13,875 nucleotides of DNA from Promethearchaeia archaeon (GCA_029856155.1 JAHQWL010000100.1:1-13875); one strand, 5' to 3'; numbered from the stretch's first letter, positions 1,271-10,239 are shown. Made by a program: numbers and translations. The notes: generated by a model not told the origin, from the letters alone.

Positions 1271-1825
1271 ATGAATAATTCTGAGGAATTCGGATTTAAA
1301 ATAGCGGTAATTGGGGATGGAGGGGTTGGTAAAACCTCTTTAATTAAAAAATTTACGAAGGGGACTTTTGAAAAAGATTATGTAAAGACTATAGGCGCCC
1401 AATTTTCAAGATTTGATAAAAAGATTGGAGAGGATTTAATTAATCTAATATTTTGGGATATTGCAGGGCAAGATGATTTTAATTTTCTACACCCTTTATT
1501 TTATAAAGAAAGTCGAGCTGGGATTATAGTATATAGCCTTGAAGAAAATGATTTAGGGACAGATAGTTTCGCACATATAAAGAATTGGTATACTGAATTA
1601 AATAAGTATTGTGGCGATATTCCTGTAGTTTTATTTGCCAATAAAGTTGATTTGGTGGAACAAAATAATTTAAATGAACTTGAAATTCAGAATTTGGTCA
1701 AAGAATATAATTTTCTTGGATATTATATAACGTCCGCAAAAACCGGACAGGGAGTAATAGAAGGATTTAATGCAATTATTGAAAAATTATATTATAAATA
1801 CAAAAAGTTGTCTATTCAGGGATAA
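1271..1825 (+). CDS. Ras-superfamily small GTPase, Rab-like
   Basis: G1 GDGGVGKT, G2 KTIG, G3 WDIAGQ, G4 NKVD and G5 SAK are all present. There is no C-terminal Cys prenylation motif, as is usual for Asgard small GTPases. Confidence 0.93.
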   Translation: MNNSEEFGFKIAVIGDGGVGKTSLIKKFTKGTFEKDYVKTIGAQFSRFDKKIGEDLINLIFWDIAGQDDFNFLHPLFYKESRAGIIVYSLEENDLGTDSFAHIKNWYTELNKYCGDIPVVLFANKVDLVEQNNLNELEIQNLVKEYNFLGYYITSAKTGQGVIEGFNAIIEKLYYKYKKLSIQG

Positions 1826-1873
1826 TAATTGAATGATCTTCTTTTATTCAATCTATCAGAAATCTCACTTTTA
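1812..1873 (-). repeat. R1: degenerate copy of the lrp 3' end
   Basis: Minus strand reads ...D*IKEDHSIIIPE-TAG versus lrp ...DRIKEDHSIIIPE-TAA. It has a CGA>TGA nonsense change and a 1-nt indel upstream. The 23-bp core at 1825-1847 is identical to 9785-9807. Confidence 0.9.
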
Positions 1874-1952
1874 GTTTAATCAAAATTAGAGAAATAAAGA
1901 TTATTCAATATAATAATAATATTATTTATCTAATACTGAGTATGGTTAAATT

Positions 1953-2432
1953 CTATAGTGTAATCCATATTTTAAGCGGATTTTCAATTTTTGGTCCTAA
2001 AGATTTAAATGATTTATGCTTAAAATGGTCATCACAAGAAAAAATTACATCGACATCAGTATAGAGAGGTAATACACAAATATAATCCCAAATATGAATA
2101 CCACTTTTCATGCTTAATTCTACAGCCTCTTTTACATGCTTATCAAAAATTTGATACCAATGCATAAACTTAGATGATAAGAGTTGGTTACAATACCTAG
2201 AAGCCATAGATATTGGAGCTTTTTTACCCCTAAATGCTAAAGCGTGAAAAATTTCGCAAAGTTGATGATTTGTCATTGAGATTTCACTTTCGATAATGCT
2301 CTGTTTTAAAAATTTGCTTGATTCTTGATGGAGATCAAGAGCATTCTCAAATTCAGATACGTCTTGAAAATTTGAGCGATCAGGTATCTTTTGTGCAAAA
2401 ATCCAGATTTCAGTATCTATAAAGATTGTCAT
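1953..2432 (-). CDS. vapC: PIN-domain toxin (VapC family)
   Basis: N-terminal IFIDTE, LCE, IWDYI and FSCDDHF supply the PIN acidic residues. The start is reassigned to ATG 2432, directly after the antitoxin stop at 2434. Confidence 0.85.
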   Translation of the reverse strand: MTIFIDTEIWIFAQKIPDRSNFQDVSEFENALDLHQESSKFLKQSIIESEISMTNHQLCEIFHALAFRGKKAPISMASRYCNQLLSSKFMHWYQIFDKHVKEAVELSMKSGIHIWDYICVLPLYTDVDVIFSCDDHFKHKSFKSLGPKIENPLKIWITL

Positions 2433-2433
2433 C

Positions 2434-2706
2434 TTAATCACGACTAATATCTTCAAAATTATATTCTTTAAAATCTTCTGGTTGACCGCCTTTAATTTTT
2501 TGTTCTAATAAGGCTAAAAAAGCTTCTCTACCATCATCGATATTGGATGATTCCTCATTACTTTTTTTATTTCTTTCTTCCAAAAGTTTGTTTATTGCAT
2601 CTTCCAATGTAACTCTTTTTCCCAGTTTGGTTGCCATTTCTCCTGCTAATTTATGTAGACTTTCAAGAGTTTTTTTTGATACTTTAATAGTAGTATTTTT
2701 ACTCAT
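2434..2706 (-). CDS. Ribbon-helix-helix-type antitoxin (VapB-like)
   Basis: MSKNTTIKVSKKTLESLHKL...VTLEDAINKLLE fits a beta-helix-helix pattern with an acidic tail. It is 90 aa from ATG 2706 and lies directly upstream of the PIN gene. Confidence 0.75.
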   Translation of the reverse strand: MSKNTTIKVSKKTLESLHKLAGEMATKLGKRVTLEDAINKLLEERNKKSNEESSNIDDGREAFLALLEQKIKGGQPEDFKEYNFEDISRD

Positions 2707-2759
2707 ATAGTATATATAGTATAATATGTATATAAAGTATACCGAATTTTTAAACGGGC

Positions 2760-2785
2760 TAGATGTATAAACTTGGATACATCTA
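2760..2785. promoter_or_regulatory. Perfect inverted repeat TAGATGTAT-N8-ATACATCTA (operator, terminator or recombination site; role unknown)
   Basis: 9-bp arms with an 8-bp spacer, lying between R2 and the antitoxin promoter region. Confidence 0.4.
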
Positions 2786-2798
2786 ATAAACTCATCAT

Positions 2799-2927
2799 GC
2801 ATTCTGGAATAATAATTGAATGATCTTCTTTTATCCGATCTAAAACAATCTCTGTTTTGACTTCCTCAACTCCTGGAAGGTTACGGAGTGTTTCAATAAA
2901 ACCCATCAAATTTTGATTATGTAGACA
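2799..2927 (-). repeat. R2: copy of the last ~42 codons of lrp, stop codon lost
   Basis: Encodes MGFIETLRNLPGVEEVKTEIVLDRIKEDHSIIIPE versus lrp MGLIETLRNLPGVEEVKTEIVLDRIKEDHSIIIPE. Over 35 codons (2802-2906) I count 10 synonymous and 1 non-synonymous difference. The stop position reads TGC. Confidence 0.95.
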
Positions 2928-2971
2928 TGATTCTTCTATTAAAAATATCTAAAAAAACAGAAAAAATACTT

Positions 2972-3026
2972 TTAAAATATATTCTGGAGATGCTATTTTT
3001 TCATAAAGATATAAACACCAGCAATT
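2972..3026 (-). pseudogene. Remnant of the 3' end of a beta-helix surface-protein gene, homologous to 5964-6019
   Basis: ttaaaatatattctggagatgcta-ttttttcataaagatataaacaccagcaatt aligns with ttaaaatttattctggcgttgctcgttttttcataaagatatacacaccagctatt. It translates to IAGVYIFMKK/ASPE versus IAGVYIFMKKRATPE*. Confidence 0.8.
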
Positions 3027-3082
3027 GTATCAACTCAACTAAAATGTTCAAAAAGTGGAGTTTTTTCTTTCTGTTAAATATT

Positions 3083-3505
3083 TTAATCTGAAAACATGCT
3101 TTCAGGAAGTATCCAAACAGGCGGATCTCTTTTAAGCCCTTTTTCTTTAAGTTTTTGTAGCTTATTTCTATAATTATTATAAAAATCGGTTCCAAAGATA
3201 CAAATACCATGATCAATGGCATCTAAAATAGATACGACACCTTCATGAAACATTTTATTAAATTCATCTATTCTATAACAAAACGCATCCAAACCTAAAG
3301 ATAATTTATAATTCTCATAAATAATGGTGGGTCTATGAATAAAAGGTTCTTTAAAGTCTCCAATAAATATTATGTCTAGGTCGCTATTTTCCATAAAATC
3401 ACCTCTTGCTCTCGATCCGAACAGGATTACACATTCTAATGATACTTTTTTATTGATATTTTCCGAAAATTTAATTATATAATCCTTCAAATCAGCCTCT
3501 AGCAT
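3083..3505 (-). CDS. Minimal nucleotidyltransferase (MNT), antitoxin of a HEPN/MNT pair
   Basis: LFGSRARGD...SDLDIIFI is the Pol-beta-type GS...DxD motif. The start is reassigned to ATG 3505, just after the HEPN stop. Confidence 0.9.
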   Translation of the reverse strand: MLEADLKDYIIKFSENINKKVSLECVILFGSRARGDFMENSDLDIIFIGDFKEPFIHRPTIIYENYKLSLGLDAFCYRIDEFNKMFHEGVVSILDAIDHGICIFGTDFYNNYRNKLQKLKEKGLKRDPPVWILPESMFSD

Positions 3506-3509
3506 ATCA

Positions 3510-3908
3510 TCAGTCTCCTTTAATTTCCTTATTAACAAAATTAATTATATCTTTCGCTTGATTTATTGCAATTTCTGCTTCTTGTTTATTATAAGCTTTA
3601 TGTGGAGCAATATTTGGAAGTGCATCGGGATAACGTGTTGTAATATAGTGTTTATCAAGGCTTAGTGCTAATCTTTCAATATTATCAAAATTTTCATTTT
3701 TAATATTCTTATATTTTTCTAAAAGCGAGTGAATAGAATGCCCCCACCCATTAATTTTATTATGATATAACAAGGCTTTCACTGCTTTTTCTGCAGCTTG
3801 CTGACAATGAAAAACTACAGTATTGAATCTATCATTCTCAAACAAAATATTTGCGTTTCCAAGATCCCAGTTTGCTTCCTCTAACCAATTGGTAGTTCGT
3901 TCATTCAT
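3510..3908 (-). CDS. HEPN domain protein
   Basis: WLEEAxxDL, FHCQQAAEKAVKALL, GHSIxxLL and LDKHYITTRYPD are signature motifs of the archaeal HEPN family paired with MNT. Confidence 0.92.
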   Translation of the reverse strand: MNERTTNWLEEANWDLGNANILFENDRFNTVVFHCQQAAEKAVKALLYHNKINGWGHSIHSLLEKYKNIKNENFDNIERLALSLDKHYITTRYPDALPNIAPHKAYNKQEAEIAINQAKDIINFVNKEIKGD

Positions 3909-4226
3909 GAAAGTGATCTATTTTTTTAAAAGTTGCTCTATATTTAATATATCCTTTCAATTTTAAATAACTAGGTAGTAATAGAACTTTTTTCTACCTA
4001 TTTTCATTAATTTTCTTAGATTTGATTCCCATATAATTTGATATAATTTTGAAAATAATAGGATAGTACGATACTTTTCAATAAGACTTATTGAAACTTC
4101 TATTCAATTATTTTTTTAGAAAACATTAAACAGTTTATAAATTATAGTTAAATCTTTTTAGAAAAAATTTATTGATTCACTTAAATACTATTATTTTCTT
4201 TATTATATTGGAAAAGGGGGTGTATT

Positions 4227-5048
4227 ATGTTGAATGAAACCAGATTAAATAAAGTCAATGAGGAAAATTTGGAAAGAATTTGGCAAATTCGTGATTATAT
4301 CCAGGAACTCGAGGATGTAAAGGACGGATTTATTGGATTTATAAGCTCTGATGATGATATAGATGATTCCACGAGGAATATTTGGATATCAGATGCTAAA
4401 GAATTCTATTTTAGCACAGTGACAGCTTGGGAAATGCTCCACTTTACTGTGAGGGGGATGAAGAACCATTTGGATGATTCTAAAGGCTTTTTATATCGTG
4501 CTAAAAGTCGATTAGCCCAGTCTATTAGTGAATTAAAAATATTTGAGCAAGAAAAAAACCTTTCTAAATTAATAACAAAAGCAAAATTAGCATTTGAAAA
4601 ATGTTGGAATGCCTTCCAACGCGAATATAAGTTAATCGAACCAGATATAAGTATAATGAAGCCTGTTCCAAGGGTAATAAAAAAATCTAATCATGAATAT
4701 CAACTTCCATGTTCTATTTGTGGTGAAATAGCTGTCGATTATAGAATAGGTGTTGGACAATTTGATAAAGAAGAAAAACTCCTTTATAGAGGGATTATAT
4801 GTGGTACATCGCTTAATAAGGGATTAGCAAATGAATTGTTTGAGATTTTGGAAAACGAGGATATTGCAGGTATTCATGAATTTATGAAGAACTATCATTC
4901 AAATGAAGGATTAGATGCATACTGCCCAAAGTGTGATAAAATCTATTGTTGGAACCATTACAAATTAGAAGAAGAATGGGATGAGGGTTTTTATGATTGT
5001 ACTTATGGAGAATGCCCAGAAGGATATAGGAGAATGATAGATGATTAG
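4227..5048 (+). CDS. Hypothetical protein with helical N-terminal half and Cys-rich, probably Zn-binding, C-terminal half
   Basis: 273-aa ORF preceded by a G-rich Shine-Dalgarno-like sequence (AGGGGGTG). It contains CSIC, YCPKC...YCWNH and CTYGECP motifs. Confidence 0.7.
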   Translation: MLNETRLNKVNEENLERIWQIRDYIQELEDVKDGFIGFISSDDDIDDSTRNIWISDAKEFYFSTVTAWEMLHFTVRGMKNHLDDSKGFLYRAKSRLAQSISELKIFEQEKNLSKLITKAKLAFEKCWNAFQREYKLIEPDISIMKPVPRVIKKSNHEYQLPCSICGEIAVDYRIGVGQFDKEEKLLYRGIICGTSLNKGLANELFEILENEDIAGIHEFMKNYHSNEGLDAYCPKCDKIYCWNHYKLEEEWDEGFYDCTYGECPEGYRRMIDD

Positions 5049-5094
5049 ATTCATAAATATTGATATTTTTTTTATTTTCTTTAGAAAATGAAGT

Positions 5095-5145
5095 TTATTT
5101 GGGAATTATAGTCGAGTAATTTTCCTTTATACCATTTAAAATCAT
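5095..5145 (-). repeat. R3: strongly degenerate copy of the lrp 3' end
   Basis: Ungapped alignment to 9772-9822 translates MILNGIKENYSTIIPK-TAA versus IVLDRIKEDHSIIIPE-TAA. It has the same orientation and the same stop-codon end point as the other copies. Confidence 0.7.
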
Positions 5146-5151
5146 TAATAA

Positions 5152-5442
5152 CTAAGTCTTAAAGTCTGGAATTCGCGAACCATGAATTAGTCTTATTATC
5201 TGAATTTTTTCTACAAAAATCCTATAAATGAGGCAGTAATTTCTTAAGATTAATTCTCTAATATTAGGATCATCAAGCTCAGGTACTTTTCTTCCCATTT
5301 TCGGAAATTTGACTAAATTTTCAACCTTTTCACGTGCCTCTTCATAAAATGAAAGGGCATATTCAAGTGAGTCTTGAGCAATATAATCAATAATCTCATT
5401 CAAATCGTTTTCTGAGATTTGTGACCATTCTATTTCAACCAT
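5152..5442 (-). CDS. RelE/ParE family toxin
   Basis: IEWS...DLNEIIDYIAQDS, FPKMGRKVPE and IRELILRNYCLIYRI...IIRLIHGSR are the classic ParE-toxin pattern. Confidence 0.9.
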   Translation of the reverse strand: MVEIEWSQISENDLNEIIDYIAQDSLEYALSFYEEAREKVENLVKFPKMGRKVPELDDPNIRELILRNYCLIYRIFVEKIQIIRLIHGSRIPDFKT

Positions 5443-5630
5443 TGTTCTAATCTTTTTTTGACAGTCTCCATAATTTGTTCATGAGGGATTACGTTACATT
5501 GCTCAATATCTTTAATTCCCGTGAGAATCTTTTTTTTAACATAAAGATGATACATAATATCATCAATTGTAGCATCTTCTGGCAATTTTTTTATAAGATC
5601 TATAATTTCTTCCTTGAGATTAGAGGTCAT
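5430..5630 (-). CDS. Antitoxin partner of the RelE/ParE toxin
   Basis: 66-aa gene overlapping the toxin start. KEEIIDLIKKLPEDATIDDIMYHLYV...GIKDIEQxNVIPHE resembles small proteins encoded upstream of ParE toxins. Confidence 0.8.
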   Translation of the reverse strand: MTSNLKEEIIDLIKKLPEDATIDDIMYHLYVKKKILTGIKDIEQCNVIPHEQIMETVKKRLEQWLK

Positions 5631-5730
5631 ATTTTCTCACTATTTAAATAATTTTTCTAACTTTTATAATTTCTCATATCGTTTTGCTTATTATTCTAAT
5701 TAAATTTTAAAATTAAAAAAAATATATCTC

Positions 5731-5754
5731 TGGTATAATTTTCTAATTATACCA
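5731..5754. promoter_or_regulatory. Perfect inverted repeat TGGTATAATT-N4-AATTATACCA (role unknown)
   Basis: 10-bp arms with a 4-bp spacer, lying between R4 and the ParE-type TA start. Confidence 0.4.
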
Positions 5755-5791
5755 AATAACGTTTTAAATTTCTCTAAAAGAAAAAACTTTT

Positions 5792-5893
5792 TTATTCAGG
5801 AATTATAATTGATAAATTTCTTTTTACGCGATCTAATACTATTTCTGTTTTAACCTCCTCTACTCCTGGCATGTTGCAGAGTTTCTCAATAAA
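5792..5893 (-). repeat. R4: diverged copy of the last ~33 codons of lrp
   Basis: Ungapped alignment translates FIEKLCNMPGVEEVKTEIVLDRVKRNLSIIIPE-TAA versus LIETLRNLPGVEEVKTEIVLDRIKEDHSIIIPE-TAA. Confidence 0.93.
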
Positions 5894-5970
5894 GTATGTA
5901 AAATTTACTTGATTAAGACATTCTATTACCATTAAAACATATAAGAAAAAAGAAAAATTCTAGTTAAAAT

Positions 5971-7460
5971 TTATTCTGGCGTTGCTCGTTTTTTCATAAA
6001 GATATACACACCAGCTATTACTGCGACTCCTCCGACTACAGAAACAACAATAATAACTATAATAACGCTTGGATCTATTCCACCAGCAGGGATATTTTTA
6101 GTTATCGTTACTTCTTCAAAAGTGAGATTTCCAGCTGTATCATTAGTATAGAACGTAATCGTTATTGATCCTTCAGATAGAGCTACCCAAGCTGCTTGGT
6201 CAATAGTAGCATTCGTAGTAATAGCATAAGTGGTTAAGCCTCCATCAAGAGAATACCAGACAGAATCTAAATTGTAATCTGTAATCGTAACAATGAAAGC
6301 GGGAGCAGTAGCTCCAAACTCAGCTCCAGGAGATGGTGAATCGATTATGATTAATGGTACTACTGTATCCTTTATTATACTTACATCAGCAGTTCCCATA
6401 TTTCCCGGTATATCAGAAGCATAAAAAGATAATGTAATCATACCATCTGATAAAGCATCCCACGCTGATTGTTCAATGTTTCCAGATAATTCTGTAAATG
6501 TGTAATTATGTAAACCACCGTCAAGAGTATACCATATTTCAAATACAGAATTATCTGTCATTGTAACATCATAGCTTGGTGTATTACTTCCAAATACATC
6601 ATCATCGCTAAGCGAATTAATCGTTATCGATGGGGCACCATCTTCAGCTATAGGGAAATAATCAACACTCCCGGCAGAACCACCTATATACGTATACGGC
6701 TCATCCACAATTCCATCTTGGGGAGTTGTATCTGGACCAGTATGATTATCCCAATAATTCCCAATCGTCGTGCTTTTCCACGTATTATCAGTTCCCCCAT
6801 CATAAGCATGCTTTCCATTTTCTAGAAAGAAATTTTTATAGAGTGAATTGTTTCCACAATCGGTATCCTCAATATATATTCCCCTAGTATTATTGTATAC
6901 GACATTCTCAGTAATACTATTATAATCGCAATTAGATTCTAAATATATCCCGTACTCGTTACCGTTTACAGTATTTCCCGAAATGGTGTTATTATCACAC
7001 TGGTGTAAATATATCCCGTAATGGTTACCATTTGCAGTGTTTCCCGAAATCGTGTTATTATTGCAGTTAAAAATTATATATAACCCCAAAGTGTTATTAT
7101 TTGCGGTGTTTCCCGAAATCGTGTTATAATCACAATTACCATCAAAACATAGCCCTTCAGCATCATTATCGTTTGCAATGTTTCCGAAATGGTGTTATAC
7201 TCACAATAAGAAAATAAATATATCCCAAGATCGTTGTGGTTTGCGGTGTTTCCCAAGATGGTGTTATTATCGCAATTATTATGTATATCTATCCCGGTCA
7301 TATCGTTATCATGTGCGGTGTTGTTGTAGATGGTGTTATTATGACAATTACCATAAAAATTTATCCCGTCTCCGGTATTGTTACATGCGGTTTTTCCCGT
7401 AATGATATTATAATCGCAATCGTTATACAAAAACATTATTATGACAGTTGTGCAGTTGAA
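5971..7460 (-). pseudogene. Membrane-anchored surface protein (NosD/PbH1 right-handed beta-helix, Ig-like domains, C-terminal TM); frameshifted and 5'-truncated
   Basis: Repeats of GIYL..CDNNTISGNTAN.N, then GNYWD...DGIVDEPY, two P.I.I.SP...WYSLDGG Ig-like units and a TM segment followed by KKR. ORFs 7074-7436 and 5971-7089 join if CC at 7184-7185 is restored to the CCC seen in sister repeats. No signal peptide or N-terminus is seen, and the 5' limit is approximate. Confidence 0.85.
6960..7350. repeat. Imperfect intragenic tandem repeats, ~66-72 bp period (beta-helix coils)
   Basis: A recurring motif similar to gtgtttcccgaaat(c/g)gtgttat appears near 6970, 7037, 7106, 7178 and 7246, with a weaker copy near 7317. 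Confidence 0.75.
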
Positions 7461-7525
7461 ATCTAAATCTAAATAGTCTAATATTTCTGAAAAAACATAA
7501 ATAGTCAGAAAAACATATATTTTTT

Positions 7526-7786
7526 ATGACAACTCAAGATAAAACAATTGTTGGAAAAAAAGGAGAAATATTACCCAAAAAACCACTAAGGGAAATATCA
7601 GGGATTAATCCCGGAGATGAGGTAATTATTGAGGCACATCAAGGAGAACTAATTATAAAAAAGATTTTTTCTGTCGAAGAAGCATTAGCCATGCCACCTA
7701 TCAGCTCTGGCACTGCCGAAAGTATAGAAGCTGATATTAAAGAGGAGAGAGAATATCAGGAGAAACTTACTAATGAAGAACATTAA
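7526..7786 (+). CDS. AbrB/MazE/SpoVT-family antitoxin
   Basis: VGKKGEIxxxKxLRExxGINPGDEVII...GELIIKK is the swapped-hairpin signature. The gene overlaps the downstream PIN gene. Confidence 0.88.
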   Translation: MTTQDKTIVGKKGEILPKKPLREISGINPGDEVIIEAHQGELIIKKIFSVEEALAMPPISSGTAESIEADIKEEREYQEKLTNEEH

Positions 7787-8279
7787 ATCAATTATGCTGG
7801 ATACAACATATGTATTACCCCTTTTTGGTATTAAAATAAACCTTTCGGAAAACTTTCGAGAAGAGATAAGTCAACTCTGGAAAAACGGAATAAAAGATTA
7901 TGACATATATCTTCCATCAACATGTCTTATAGAAACTGTTTATAAATTACTTTATGAATATAGAAAAAGGGACGATTTGAGCATCTTAGAAAGATATCAT
8001 CTGATTCTCCCAACAATTCTTAATTCATCAATACAAATATATAATCCAGAATTAGACATAAAAGCTAGTGCAATAGCTTCAATCATTAGGAATTCGGGTC
8101 ATTTGGATTATATGGATTGTTGGATCGCGGGATCTGCAGTTGCTTTAAATTCGATCCTTTTAACCGAAGATAAAGAATTAGAAAAAATCCTTAAGATAAT
8201 CCCAGAAACTAAATCACTAAATGTAAGATCATGGAAAAAATTCATTACAAAAATCTTTAATGAGCATAAATTATCATAA
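7773..8279 (+). CDS. vapC: PIN-domain toxin (VapC family)
   Basis: MLDTTY, CLIET, DYMDCWIAGSA and LLTEDKEL carry the PIN catalytic acidic residues. Confidence 0.87.
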   Translation: MKNIKSIMLDTTYVLPLFGIKINLSENFREEISQLWKNGIKDYDIYLPSTCLIETVYKLLYEYRKRDDLSILERYHLILPTILNSSIQIYNPELDIKASAIASIIRNSGHLDYMDCWIAGSAVALNSILLTEDKELEKILKIIPETKSLNVRSWKKFITKIFNEHKLS

Positions 8280-8298
8280 ACTCCCAATATGAGTAAGA

Positions 8299-8617
8299 AT
8301 GAAAAAAGAGACCATAGATGAGCTTGATCGTATAGTGGAATTACTTGCTATAGATAGAATTACAATTGTAAGAAAAATAATTAGTACCGGAATTAAACAA
8401 CAAAAAATACAAGTAACCCTTGATTTATATCAAAAAGGAGATACATTGGAGCGAGCGACAAATTTATCTGATGCTTCGTTATGGGATCTCTTTGAAGAAT
8501 TTAAAAAATTGAGGTATAACATCTAAATTTGATATTGAAAAAGAGAAAGACACATATATTCGTATTTTTAGGAAAGATAATAAGGATTTATTTAAAAAAA
8601 TAAGAGATATTCAATAA
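8299..8617 (+). pseudogene. UPF0175-like HTH putative antitoxin, probably frameshifted near 8510
   Basis: RHH-like N-terminus plus LDLYQKGDTLERATNLSDASLWDLFEEFKK. A shifted frame continues GITSKFDIEKEK...RDIQ to TAA 8617, restoring the family-typical ...KxGI tail. No downstream toxin follows. Confidence 0.55.
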
Positions 8618-8707
8618 ATTTCTTCTATCCATTTGATTTAGTATCAAATTTAATGTGGAGAATAATCCTAAATAAAAAAAGGCTGTATGAAAAGATCTGA
8701 AATTTTA

Positions 8708-8808
8708 TCACTCAGGGATAATAATTGAATGATCTTCTTTTATTCGGTCCAAAACTATTTCAGTCTTAACTTCTTCAACTCTAGAAAAATCTTCTCAATC
8801 TTGTTTTT
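8708..8808 (-). repeat. R5: copy of the lrp 3' end plus a second, more upstream lrp segment
   Basis: 8708-8779 encodes VEEVKTEIVLDRIKEDHSIIIPE-TGA, identical in protein to lrp with 8 synonymous differences in 23 codons. 8789-8808 matches lrp 9962-9981 at 19 of 20 positions. Confidence 0.93.
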
Positions 8809-8929
8809 AATATTCTTTTCCCACCTCATATAAAGAACAGTCGAAATCTATTGAAAAATATTGATGATTCTCTCCTATTTTAAAGTAAAAATTATATAAT
8901 TTAGATATTATATATATTGTAGAGATAAT

Positions 8930-9172
8930 ATGACAGAAATAAAACTTAAAATTCCTGAAGCTTTACACGAAAAAATGAAAAAACACCCAGAGATTAGATG
9001 GGAAACCATTGCCCAATCAGCTTTAGAACGTTATGTCGAAAAAATTGAATTCACTGAAAAGATTGCATCAACTAGCAAATTAACTATTGATGACGTTGAG
9101 GATATAAGTAATGAAATTACTAAAAGAAGTTGGCAAAAACATAAAGAATATCTTGAAAAATTAAAAAAATGA
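8930..9172 (+). CDS. Ribbon-helix-helix antitoxin (archaeal VapB-like)
   Basis: IKLKIPEALHEKMKKHPEIRWETIAQSALERY fits the archaeal RHH 'EIxWS' type. It has an ATGA overlap with the PIN gene. Confidence 0.8.
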   Translation: MTEIKLKIPEALHEKMKKHPEIRWETIAQSALERYVEKIEFTEKIASTSKLTIDDVEDISNEITKRSWQKHKEYLEKLKK

Positions 9173-9630
9173 AGCTTATCATTGATACTAATGTATTAAT
9201 CTCTAGCTTATTGAAAGATTCAACTACTAGACAGCTACTTCTTAATGAGTCATTTGAATTTTATCTACCTGAAATCGTTATAATTGAGCTAAAGAAATAT
9301 CTTATATACATAATTCAAAAATCAGGAATAACTGAAGATGAGATAAAAAATCTTCTAAATGCGCTGCTTGAAAATTTAAAATTAGTGCCTTTTGATGAAT
9401 ATGAAGATCAAATGGATGAGGCAATGGAGATCATGGGTAAAATAGATGAAAAGGATACACAGTTTATAGCTTTAGCATTATCAATTAAAAATGATGGAAT
9501 ATGGTCTAATGATAAACATTTTGATGAGCAAACAAAAATCCAAGTCTATAAAACCATTGATATCATTAATCTCTTGGAGAAAAAGTCGAAAAGTCAGGAT
9601 GATGAAAAGCAAGATAATAAAAAGTTATGA
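9169..9630 (+). CDS. vapC: PIN-domain toxin (VapC family)
   Basis: LIIDTNVLISSLL, VIIEL, DEKDTQFIALAL and IWSNDKHF motifs. Confidence 0.92.
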   Translation: MKLIIDTNVLISSLLKDSTTRQLLLNESFEFYLPEIVIIELKKYLIYIIQKSGITEDEIKNLLNALLENLKLVPFDEYEDQMDEAMEIMGKIDEKDTQFIALALSIKNDGIWSNDKHFDEQTKIQVYKTIDIINLLEKKSKSQDDEKQDNKKL

Positions 9631-9771
9631 TTCTAAAAAATTTCTCTTAATTTAATACTAAAATAATTTATATGGTTTTTAGTTAAGTAAAATGCTTTTT
9701 GTCTTAATTTATGTTAAGTAGAATATTATTCAATCGTTTTTTCTTTTTTAGAAGAACAATAATCTGGAAAA

Positions 9772-10239
9772 TTACTCAGGAATTATAATTGAATGATCTT
9801 CTTTTATTCGGTCTAAGACAATCTCAGTTTTAACTTCCTCAACTCCGGGAAGGTTGCGGAGTGTTTCAATAAGACCCATAGAATCTTGATGGTTTAAACA
9901 TTTTGCCATAATAAATAAAGGATATTCTCCAGTAACTACATAAGCATATTTTATCTTTTCCATCTTCTCAATCTCGTTTTTGACACCCTCTAATGGATTT
10001 GTAGCATTTAATCTTAGAGATGCCATTACCATTTCTCGATATCCTAATAGGCGACAATCAATTAATGCAACATACTTTTTAATCAAATCTTTCTCAAGTC
10101 GTTGAATACGCGCTCTTATAGCAGTAGCACTCTTATTTGTTTGGTGCGCAATTTCTCTAATAGTTAATTTTGCATCATCTTGTAATAACTCAAGAATTTG
10201 TCGATCTATATCATCAAGAGTTCCATTTGTTGATACCAT
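9772..10239 (-). CDS. lrp: Lrp/AsnC family transcriptional regulator (target gene of the cassette array)
   Basis: LDDIDRQILELLQDDAKLTIREIA...RARIQRLE HTH and a C-terminal RAM domain (VTGEYP...LPGVEEVKTEIVL). Confidence 0.95.
   Translation of the reverse strand: MVSTNGTLDDIDRQILELLQDDAKLTIREIAHQTNKSATAIRARIQRLEKDLIKKYVALIDCRLLGYREMVMASLRLNATNPLEGVKNEIEKMEKIKYAYVVTGEYPLFIMAKCLNHQDSMGLIETLRNLPGVEEVKTEIVLDRIKEDHSIIIPE

Follow-up and report, generated by a model that had tools for sequence, protein, structure and literature searches.

The contig examined here (JAHQWL010000100.1:1-13875; 30% G+C), which comes from a 4.1-Mb metagenome-assembled genome of a Promethearchaeia archaeon (GCA_029856155.1), was analysed over its whole length of 13.9 kb, referred to below as the window. 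It carries a gene for an Lrp/AsnC regulator (lrp), and downstream of this gene lie five copies of the lrp 3' end (R5 to R1), all on the lrp (−) strand, which bound five cassettes (A to E) in the order lrp-A-R5-B-R4-C-R3-D-R2-E-R1-GTPase (Table 1); the repeated unit of the array is the last ~45 codons of lrp. The best explanation of this array, to which we give a probability of roughly 0.6, is insertion without an integrase, in which homology within the conserved end of lrp serves as the anchor and each event replaces the end of the working gene and displaces the old one. All of the sequences used, from the window, from congeners and from environmental contigs, were metagenome assemblies.

Mostly silent divergence of the displaced lrp ends

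Synonymous and non-synonymous differences between each tail and the resident lrp were counted by the Nei-Gojobori method and compared, using a binomial test, with a neutral silent-site share of 0.21. R5 showed 8 synonymous and 0 non-synonymous differences in 23 codons (p = 4e-6), and the last 35 codons of R2 showed 10 and 1 (p = 3e-6), which reproduced exactly the counts of a first-pass annotation made from the sequence alone. Over 42 codons the figures for R2 were 12.5 and 5.5; R1 had 3 and 0 in 11 codons, and R4 had 15.8 and 21.2 in 43 codons, giving a ratio of non-synonymous to synonymous rates (dN/dS, omega) of 0.21. By calculation, the p-values would still be near 2e-4 were mutation bias to raise the neutral silent share to 0.35. 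The variation in stop codons that the annotation had listed (TAA in lrp, R3 and R4, TGA in R5, TAG in R1) was also found throughout; R2, which that list does not cover, has TGC where the stop would be. The remark that the more distant copies are not always the more decayed was borne out, R5 and R2 being fresh and R4 and R3 decayed.

The distances from the resident end (8/69 nt for R5 and 18/126 nt for R2) were as large as those of lrp alleles of other species, and the closest sister, G018, had 4 silent changes over the 23 codons of R5, fewer than R5 itself. As the silent divergence between R5 and the resident is on the scale of species, both would have diverged under purifying selection, and at least one member of each tail/resident pair must, judged from these distances, have been imported. 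The annotation's proposal that the tails are former working lrp ends that had been under purifying selection is therefore supported: omega ranged from 0 to 0.2, the distances were species-like, and no copy grouped with the resident at a dN/dS near 1. Nor did the tails match an intact paralog in the same genome, where no other Lrp paralog exceeds 31% identity to lrp; no tail copies and no close lrp paralog were found in the rest of the genome outside the array.

A phylogeny of the tails, suggested in the annotation as a way to assign donors, did not do so: at 69 to 126 nt the tails were too short. None could be named for R5, R2 or R1, for which the nearest neighbours differed at 6-8/69 and 17-18/126 nt; nor did a tree over 210 nt resolve the main clade. 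The alleles of G018, G005 and the window's own genome (G000) were mosaics in which no single breakpoint could be called.

The same pattern was found beyond the window. Orthologs of lrp lay beside tusA-dsrE in 16 of the 24 congeners searched, and a further congener with a tail-only contig brought the number with lrp sequence to 17, at least 10 of which had displaced lrp copies (one to four, downstream). A degenerate tail pattern, run against metagenome contigs, gave 80 usable loci, many with displaced copies, so that 59 resident-like and 65 displaced copies were collected in total. For 29 displaced copies that could be compared with their own resident on the same contig, the proportions of differing synonymous (pS) and non-synonymous (pN) sites were 0.53 and 0.105 (pN/pS 0.20, p about 1e-113). 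Codon positions that are invariant among residents were changed in displaced copies at only 2-10% (about 5% on average), which indicates that displacement is recent in comparison with the divergence of the alleles; as silent sites differed at about 50% between displaced and resident copies, the arrays turn over much faster than species diverge.

In the sister species G018 the assembly breaks inside the array (loci L002 and L032, on contigs C15 and C73); the two contigs join via a DUF5615/DUF433 toxin–antitoxin cassette followed by a 131-codon displaced lrp copy, a unit also seen in G005 and G019. From this comparison the G018 array looks like a deletion derivative of the window array with the DUF5615/DUF433 cassette in addition. 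We favour the view that recombination between tails, together with deletions, reshaped the arrays, which would explain why decay is not steady with distance from lrp.

Foreign copies, moving cargo and empty sites

Evidence for movement of DNA between lineages came from several directions. In G016 the resident lrp belongs to a clade that we call Q-type and is 65% identical to the window lrp. One of its displaced copies belongs to a different, E-type clade and was excluded from the resident's clade at 97/97 support in the tree; two other displaced copies were chimeric, with an E-type 5' side and a Q-type 3' side at 21 diagnostic sites. The cargo gave similar indications. The AbrB-PIN module of cassette B (7423-8260) was 95.6% identical at the nucleotide level to positions 1757-2594 of metagenome locus L105, and the lrp-tusA flanks of the same two loci were 66.8% identical; likewise, the gene for a 273-aa protein in cassette D was 88.7% identical in nucleotide sequence to its counterpart in locus L076, with flanks at 66%. 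The block of high identity shared by the window and L105 reaches no lrp tail, and since it stops short of the tails the AbrB-PIN module would have moved, or been converted, on its own. Identical cassette starts, placed right after the stop codon, were found behind resident genes in some contigs and behind displaced tails with differing 5' limits in others.

The far end of the array provided a further comparison. Three metagenome contigs (L103, L089 and L128) were found in which the resident lrp is directly followed by the GTPase gene: the 3' ends of the two overlap in L103, and a spacer of roughly 30-50 nt lies between them in L089 and L128. R1, which overlaps the stop of the GTPase gene by 14 nt, aligned together with its TAG and flank with the empty site of the L103 type. 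As R1 and its flank match the arrangement of an empty site, R1 is the original chromosomal end of lrp. Tail-duplicating insertions would survive here because overlapping genes stay intact only if the lrp end is duplicated.

Exchange of DNA between lineages is directly visible in the G016 copies, the toxin–antitoxin module, the match of R1 to the empty sites and the YhhN gene described below. The earlier reading of the array as a record of exchange among related lineages thus gained support from each of these.

Displaced ends of other genes

A genome-wide screen identified further displaced gene ends, 0.7-3 kb downstream of the gene and still finishing at the stop codon, for genes that include YhhN, a TFIIB paralog, PFOR-beta, an AMP-ligase, DUF998 and an unassigned 328-aa gene (Table 1). 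Per site, these copies had fewer replacement changes than silent ones, and for most of them the difference was significant. The genes between gene and displaced end were ordinary ones, with no recombinase among such cargo at the loci of the screen. Two other candidates, on contigs C102 and C52, proved to be tandem full-length paralogs, not displaced tails, and were discarded.

The YhhN tail carried 15 silent changes and 3 replacements. Compared with the sister species G005, which has no YhhN duplicate, the displaced tail together with its flank differed at 8/74 positions, whereas the sequence behind the working end differed at 36/71. As the displaced tail matches G005 and the flank of the working end does not, the working end was imported with the insert and the native end displaced. 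YhhN is a direct demonstration of the tail-swap idea, and the extension of the pattern to a genus-wide lrp hotspot and, in the window's genome, to other genes is supported.

A model for growth of the array

These observations can be combined in the following model. The lrp-GTPase interval would be a hotspot for insertion at which the ancestral genes overlap tail to tail, so that new DNA spares lrp only if it brings a replacement lrp end. Incoming DNA of a related lineage, consisting of the 3' part of the donor's functional lrp and cargo, mostly toxin–antitoxin pairs, would recombine with the resident gene within its conserved last 20 to 130 codons. Joining may occur by a single crossover with a circle (Campbell type), or by homology at one end and an illegitimate join at the other. 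The donor end would then become the working end of lrp and the previous end would be shifted downstream as a silent fragment; repetition of this step would build the observed order from lrp to the GTPase gene, and later recombination between tails, with deletions, would reshuffle and erode it. The tails would differ mainly at silent sites because each once served as the working lrp end, and replacement changes would be expected only in the older tails, that is R4, R3 and the 5' part of R1. We infer that the host's homologous recombination provides the joining activity, and infer in the same way the route by which DNA passes between cells.

Several searches bore on how the joining occurs, for which the annotation had put forward no mechanism. 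The window's own genome has one Xer-like match to PF00589, on contig C81 and not on the lrp contig, and none of the PF00589 matches in five congeners was on an lrp contig. Searches by tblastn and hidden Markov model from six recombinases of the genus gave no match in 100 loci (652 kb), serine and other classes not being specifically searched, and Pfam scans of about 70 open reading frames (ORFs) from the arrays returned toxin–antitoxin, surface, regulatory and metabolic families only, and no recombinase family. The 5' limits of the copies were scattered between codons 18 and 136, with differences of several nt even within a class. Four of the window copies share an identical 23-nt stretch, the silent-site usage of which across 56 resident alleles equals the codon usage of the genome. 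Hairpins like those of attC sites were not apparent, as both strands of four tails folded no better than shuffled sequences (z from −1.7 to +1.5).

Certain observations weigh against the model. Cassettes were not seen in circular or free form, and a scan of viral contigs for the lrp-tail pattern was empty. The 5' limits, scattered as they are, cluster loosely at codons 108-110, 119-124 and 129-136, a pattern that preferred breakpoints, or descent from a small number of founder elements, could produce. In some contigs (L129) homologous toxin–antitoxin modules stand without tails between them, so cargo also moves or persists without a tail. A trans-acting recombinase, or one of a serine or other class outside the profile used, may be involved, and the arrays in metagenome assemblies could be composites of a population.

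Alternative explanations

It is negative and indirect evidence that leads us to favour homologous over site-specific joining. Under site-specific accretion, an integrase encoded elsewhere (tyrosine, serine or other; on a virus, a plasmid or an unbinned element) would insert small mobilisable cassettes whose attP is a copy of the lrp end, the integrase having been lost or never carried, as in islands of the cis-mobilizable or tycheposon-like kind discussed below. Such a process would account for the topology, which is that of known tandem accretion at gene 3' ends (PMC5704250; bioRxiv 10.1101/2020.12.28.424599), for the common orientation of every copy and its ending at the stop codon, for the start of cassettes directly behind that stop, and also for the loose clustering of 5' limits and the shared 23-nt stretch. 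However, that stretch showed no silent-site conservation beyond codon bias, the 5' limits were heterogeneous at the nucleotide level, no tyrosine-type integrase was found in the 100 loci or on the lrp contigs of six genomes, and the tail was on no viral contig scanned; moreover, the tail swaps at unrelated genes with ordinary cargo would need many site specificities. We therefore regard site-specific accretion as rather unlikely.

The two remaining explanations appear far weaker. If the end of lrp had been duplicated locally in tandem, with neutral decay and later insertion of cargo, about 79% of changes should be replacements, against 0/8, 1/11 and 0/3 observed and a pN/pS of 0.20 in 29 copies. 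That the copies are direct repeats on one strand near the gene, and that along most of its length a displaced copy in G008 hardly differs from its resident, would suit such an origin, but the foreign-clade copies in G016 would not, and R1 and the displaced YhhN tail are native ends and not decayed duplicates; we find local duplication hardly credible. It is also very unlikely that the displaced tails are selected where they sit, as small peptides, fusion ends or protein-binding DNA sites. R2 does lie within a 68-codon ORF with a TTG start, and the low rate of change at codons invariant among residents might be read in the same sense; yet the frames of R5, R1 and most metagenome copies are closed by in-frame stops just upstream and have no start codon, selection on the DNA itself would keep silent sites, which vary, and the older copies R4 and R3 do decay. 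Insertion anchored by homology, with exchange of the gene end, remains the explanation that we prefer.

Organisation of the array and its cassettes

The positions of the features are collected in Table 1.

Table 1. Features of the lrp array in the window, and loci with displaced gene ends elsewhere in the same genome (G000).
Feature	Contig	Position	Strand	Description
Ras-like small GTPase gene	window	1271..1825	+	Pfam Ras 2e-39; convergent with lrp; distal boundary of the array
R1	window	1812-1847	−	native lrp end, 11 codons and TAG; part further upstream decayed
Cassette E	window	1848..2798		probable antitoxin and 167-aa partner (1953-2456 −)
R2	window	2799-2939	−	displaced lrp tail, codons 110-155; no stop codon, TGC in its place
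Cassette D	window	2940..5094		Cys-rich 273-aa protein (4227-5048 +), HEPN (3510-3908 −), MNT nucleotidyltransferase (3083-3538 −)
R3	window	5095-5139	−	strongly decayed lrp tail, last ~15 codons and TAA
Cassette C	window	5140..5791		antitoxin, 66 aa (5430-5630 −), upstream of ParE toxin (5152-5442 −)
R4	window	5792-5938	−	displaced lrp tail, codons 108-155 and stop TAA, partly decayed
Cassette B	window	5939..8707		75-aa ORF (8299-8526 +), PIN toxin (7773-8279 +), AbrB/MazE antitoxin (7526-7786 +), split NosD gene (5971-7436 −)
R5	window	8708-8779	−	displaced lrp tail, codons 133-155 and stop TGA
Cassette A	window	8782..9771		VapB-like antitoxin (8930-9172 +) and PIN_2 toxin (9169-9630 +)
Resident lrp	window	9772..10239	−	Lrp/AsnC regulator, 155 aa, stop TAA
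Displaced-end locus L046	C5	4213-6420
Displaced-end locus L042	C84	6310-10213
Displaced-end locus L040	C51	1770-4048
Displaced-end locus L041	C72	92115-95932
Displaced-end locus L049	C3	8924-10461
Displaced-end locus L039	C21	25630-27983		unassigned 328-aa gene

The anchor gene has both of the domains that mark the Lrp/AsnC family, an N-terminal helix-turn-helix of the AsnC type (HTH_AsnC-type, PF13404, 2e-14) and a C-terminal ligand-binding RAM domain (AsnC_trans_reg, PF01037, 3e-9). It adjoins a tusA-dsrE-hdr cluster, with tusA and dsrE on its upstream side. At the other end, the last tail copy has the GTPase gene as its conserved neighbour in 9 metagenome loci, and the Ras-like product of this gene is consistent with a Loki-type Asgard host. 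Among 56 alleles, codons 127-132 of lrp (window 9841-9858) preferred rare G+C-rich synonyms (CGC 39% against 4% genome-wide, AAC 54% against 16%, CTT 75% against 19%), and this stretch is able to pair as CTCCG-N9-CGGAG; the bias suggests a constraint at the nucleotide level.

The most decayed copy, R3, is identical to the last 48 nt of lrp at 33/48 positions. Matches this good or better occurred only twice in 8.2 million genome positions, R3 being one of them, and R3 is thus a weak but real copy of the lrp tail. R2 and R4 share a junction of NosD gene end, spacer and tail (families D2 and D15; 2799-3026 and 5792-6019), comprising the tail, the spacer and the last ~15 NosD codons over 230 nt at 75% identity; on the R2 side only a remnant of ~55 bp of the NosD gene is left, adjoining the MNT gene. 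As the two share both spacer and NosD end, one junction was copied or captured twice and one of the copies truncated.

Most of the cassettes carry the arrangement typical of type II toxin–antitoxin systems, a toxin of known family with an abutting or overlapping small antitoxin, namely PIN_2/VapB-like, PIN/AbrB-MazE, ParE/66-aa and HEPN/MNT. In cassette A, which is 95% identical in G018, the toxin matched Pfam PIN_2 at 1e-25 and the antitoxin gave a weak match to NCBIfam VapB. The NosD/beta-helix surface-protein gene of cassette B consists of two overlapping ORFs (7074-7436 and 5971-7089, both on the − strand) where its relatives are single ORFs of 426-1368 aa; the split may be due to a frameshift, or possibly to a small intron. 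The toxin of cassette C matched Pfam ParE_toxin at 6.5e-18, and homologous pairs were present in 5 metagenome lrp loci. Cassette D has matches to Pfam HEPN (3e-32) and NTP_transf_2, as well as the NosD remnant beside R2; its 273-aa protein had no Pfam or NCBIfam match but has C-terminal Cys clusters and is conserved at 80-85% in three other lrp arrays.

The pair of genes in cassette E matched no Pfam family and was conserved at 86-89% (aa) in G018, again between two tails. The probable antitoxin corresponds to a 122-aa ORF (2434-2802, − strand) that extends into R2, where TGC stands in place of the stop, and its G018 homolog aligned only from residue 33. The first 32 codons are therefore probably not real, the true start lying near 2706 and giving a 90-aa form as in G018.

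Relation to known systems

Repeated insertion at one gene end has been described in bacteria. In the ICESt1/ICESt3-type elements of Streptococcus thermophilus, integrative and conjugative (ICE), integrative and mobilizable (IME) and cis-mobilizable (CIME) elements accrete in tandem at the 3' end of a protein gene (PMC5704250). As in those elements, the units here are bounded by copies of the 3' end, newer units push older ones outward, and decayed units lack recombination genes; direct repeats of the 3' end of the target gene flank each unit in the window, in congeners and in metagenomes. In contrast to the element-encoded integrase and defined att core of ICE, IME and CIME, no integrase was found in the 100 loci, the starts of the copies were scattered, silent sites of the att-like stretch gave no sign of conservation other than codon bias across the 56 alleles, and the organism is an Asgard archaeon. 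Prochlorococcus tycheposon islands contain arrays of partial tRNA genes and tyrosine recombinases, with integrase fragments remaining (bioRxiv 10.1101/2020.12.28.424599). There too, successive integrations leave partial copies of the target between the cargo, and newcomers push older units inward, but the target in the window is the tail of a protein gene whose coding sequence records selection, and no remnants of recombinases were seen.

The polymorphic toxin loci rhs and cdiA have displaced 3' fragments and small partner genes downstream, which are thought to arise from homologous recombination in a conserved stretch. Their displaced ends encode different toxin tips, whereas all of the ends described here encode one conserved Lrp C-terminus and it is the cargo between them that varies. 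The arrays also resemble those of the Vibrio superintegron type in being one-sided and rich in small toxin–antitoxin cassettes, with a recurring repeat and a fixed chromosomal anchor. An integron was nevertheless rejected, since there is no intI by the array (tusA and dsrE lie upstream of lrp, and the only tyrosine recombinase found in the genome is that on C81), the repeats are not hairpin attC sites, and the cassettes lie in both orientations, so that no single array promoter could serve them all.

Laboratory genetics and work on natural transformation have made Campbell-type insertion-duplication and homology-facilitated illegitimate recombination familiar, for the most part as laboratory or one-off events in bacteria. 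As in Campbell-type integration, one homologous anchor suffices in our model, part of a gene is duplicated and the working copy is a chimera of donor and recipient. In the literature searched we found no report of such one-anchor events as the recurrent builder of natural archaeal cassette arrays, and no prior description of integrase-free gene-tail arrays in archaea. Published mobile elements of Asgard archaea are plasmids, viruses and transposon-like elements that bear integrases or target tRNA genes (PMC8813620, PMC11529989). Aloposons, the giant-gene transposons of Asgard archaea, were considered and set aside as unrelated, since tRNA genes are their sites of integration and they contain giant genes.

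Significance

Of the known relatives of eukaryotes, the Asgard archaea are the closest, and little is known of gene exchange among them. We suggest tentatively, at a little short of even odds, that tail-swap insertion is a general integrase-free mode of gene gain in Loki-type Asgard archaea, with lrp as the main hotspot, an integron-like capture platform for toxin–antitoxin and surface genes throughout the genus. The displaced ends would provide a built-in record of transfer, in which silent differences measure the distance of the donor and replacement changes date the insertion. They also offer a rule by which recent gene gain may be sought in any genome, namely a copied gene end in which a final stop codon is retained and most differences from the functional end are silent, and they open to test the idea that the accessory-gene islands of these organisms are built by ordinary homologous recombination and not by dedicated integrases.

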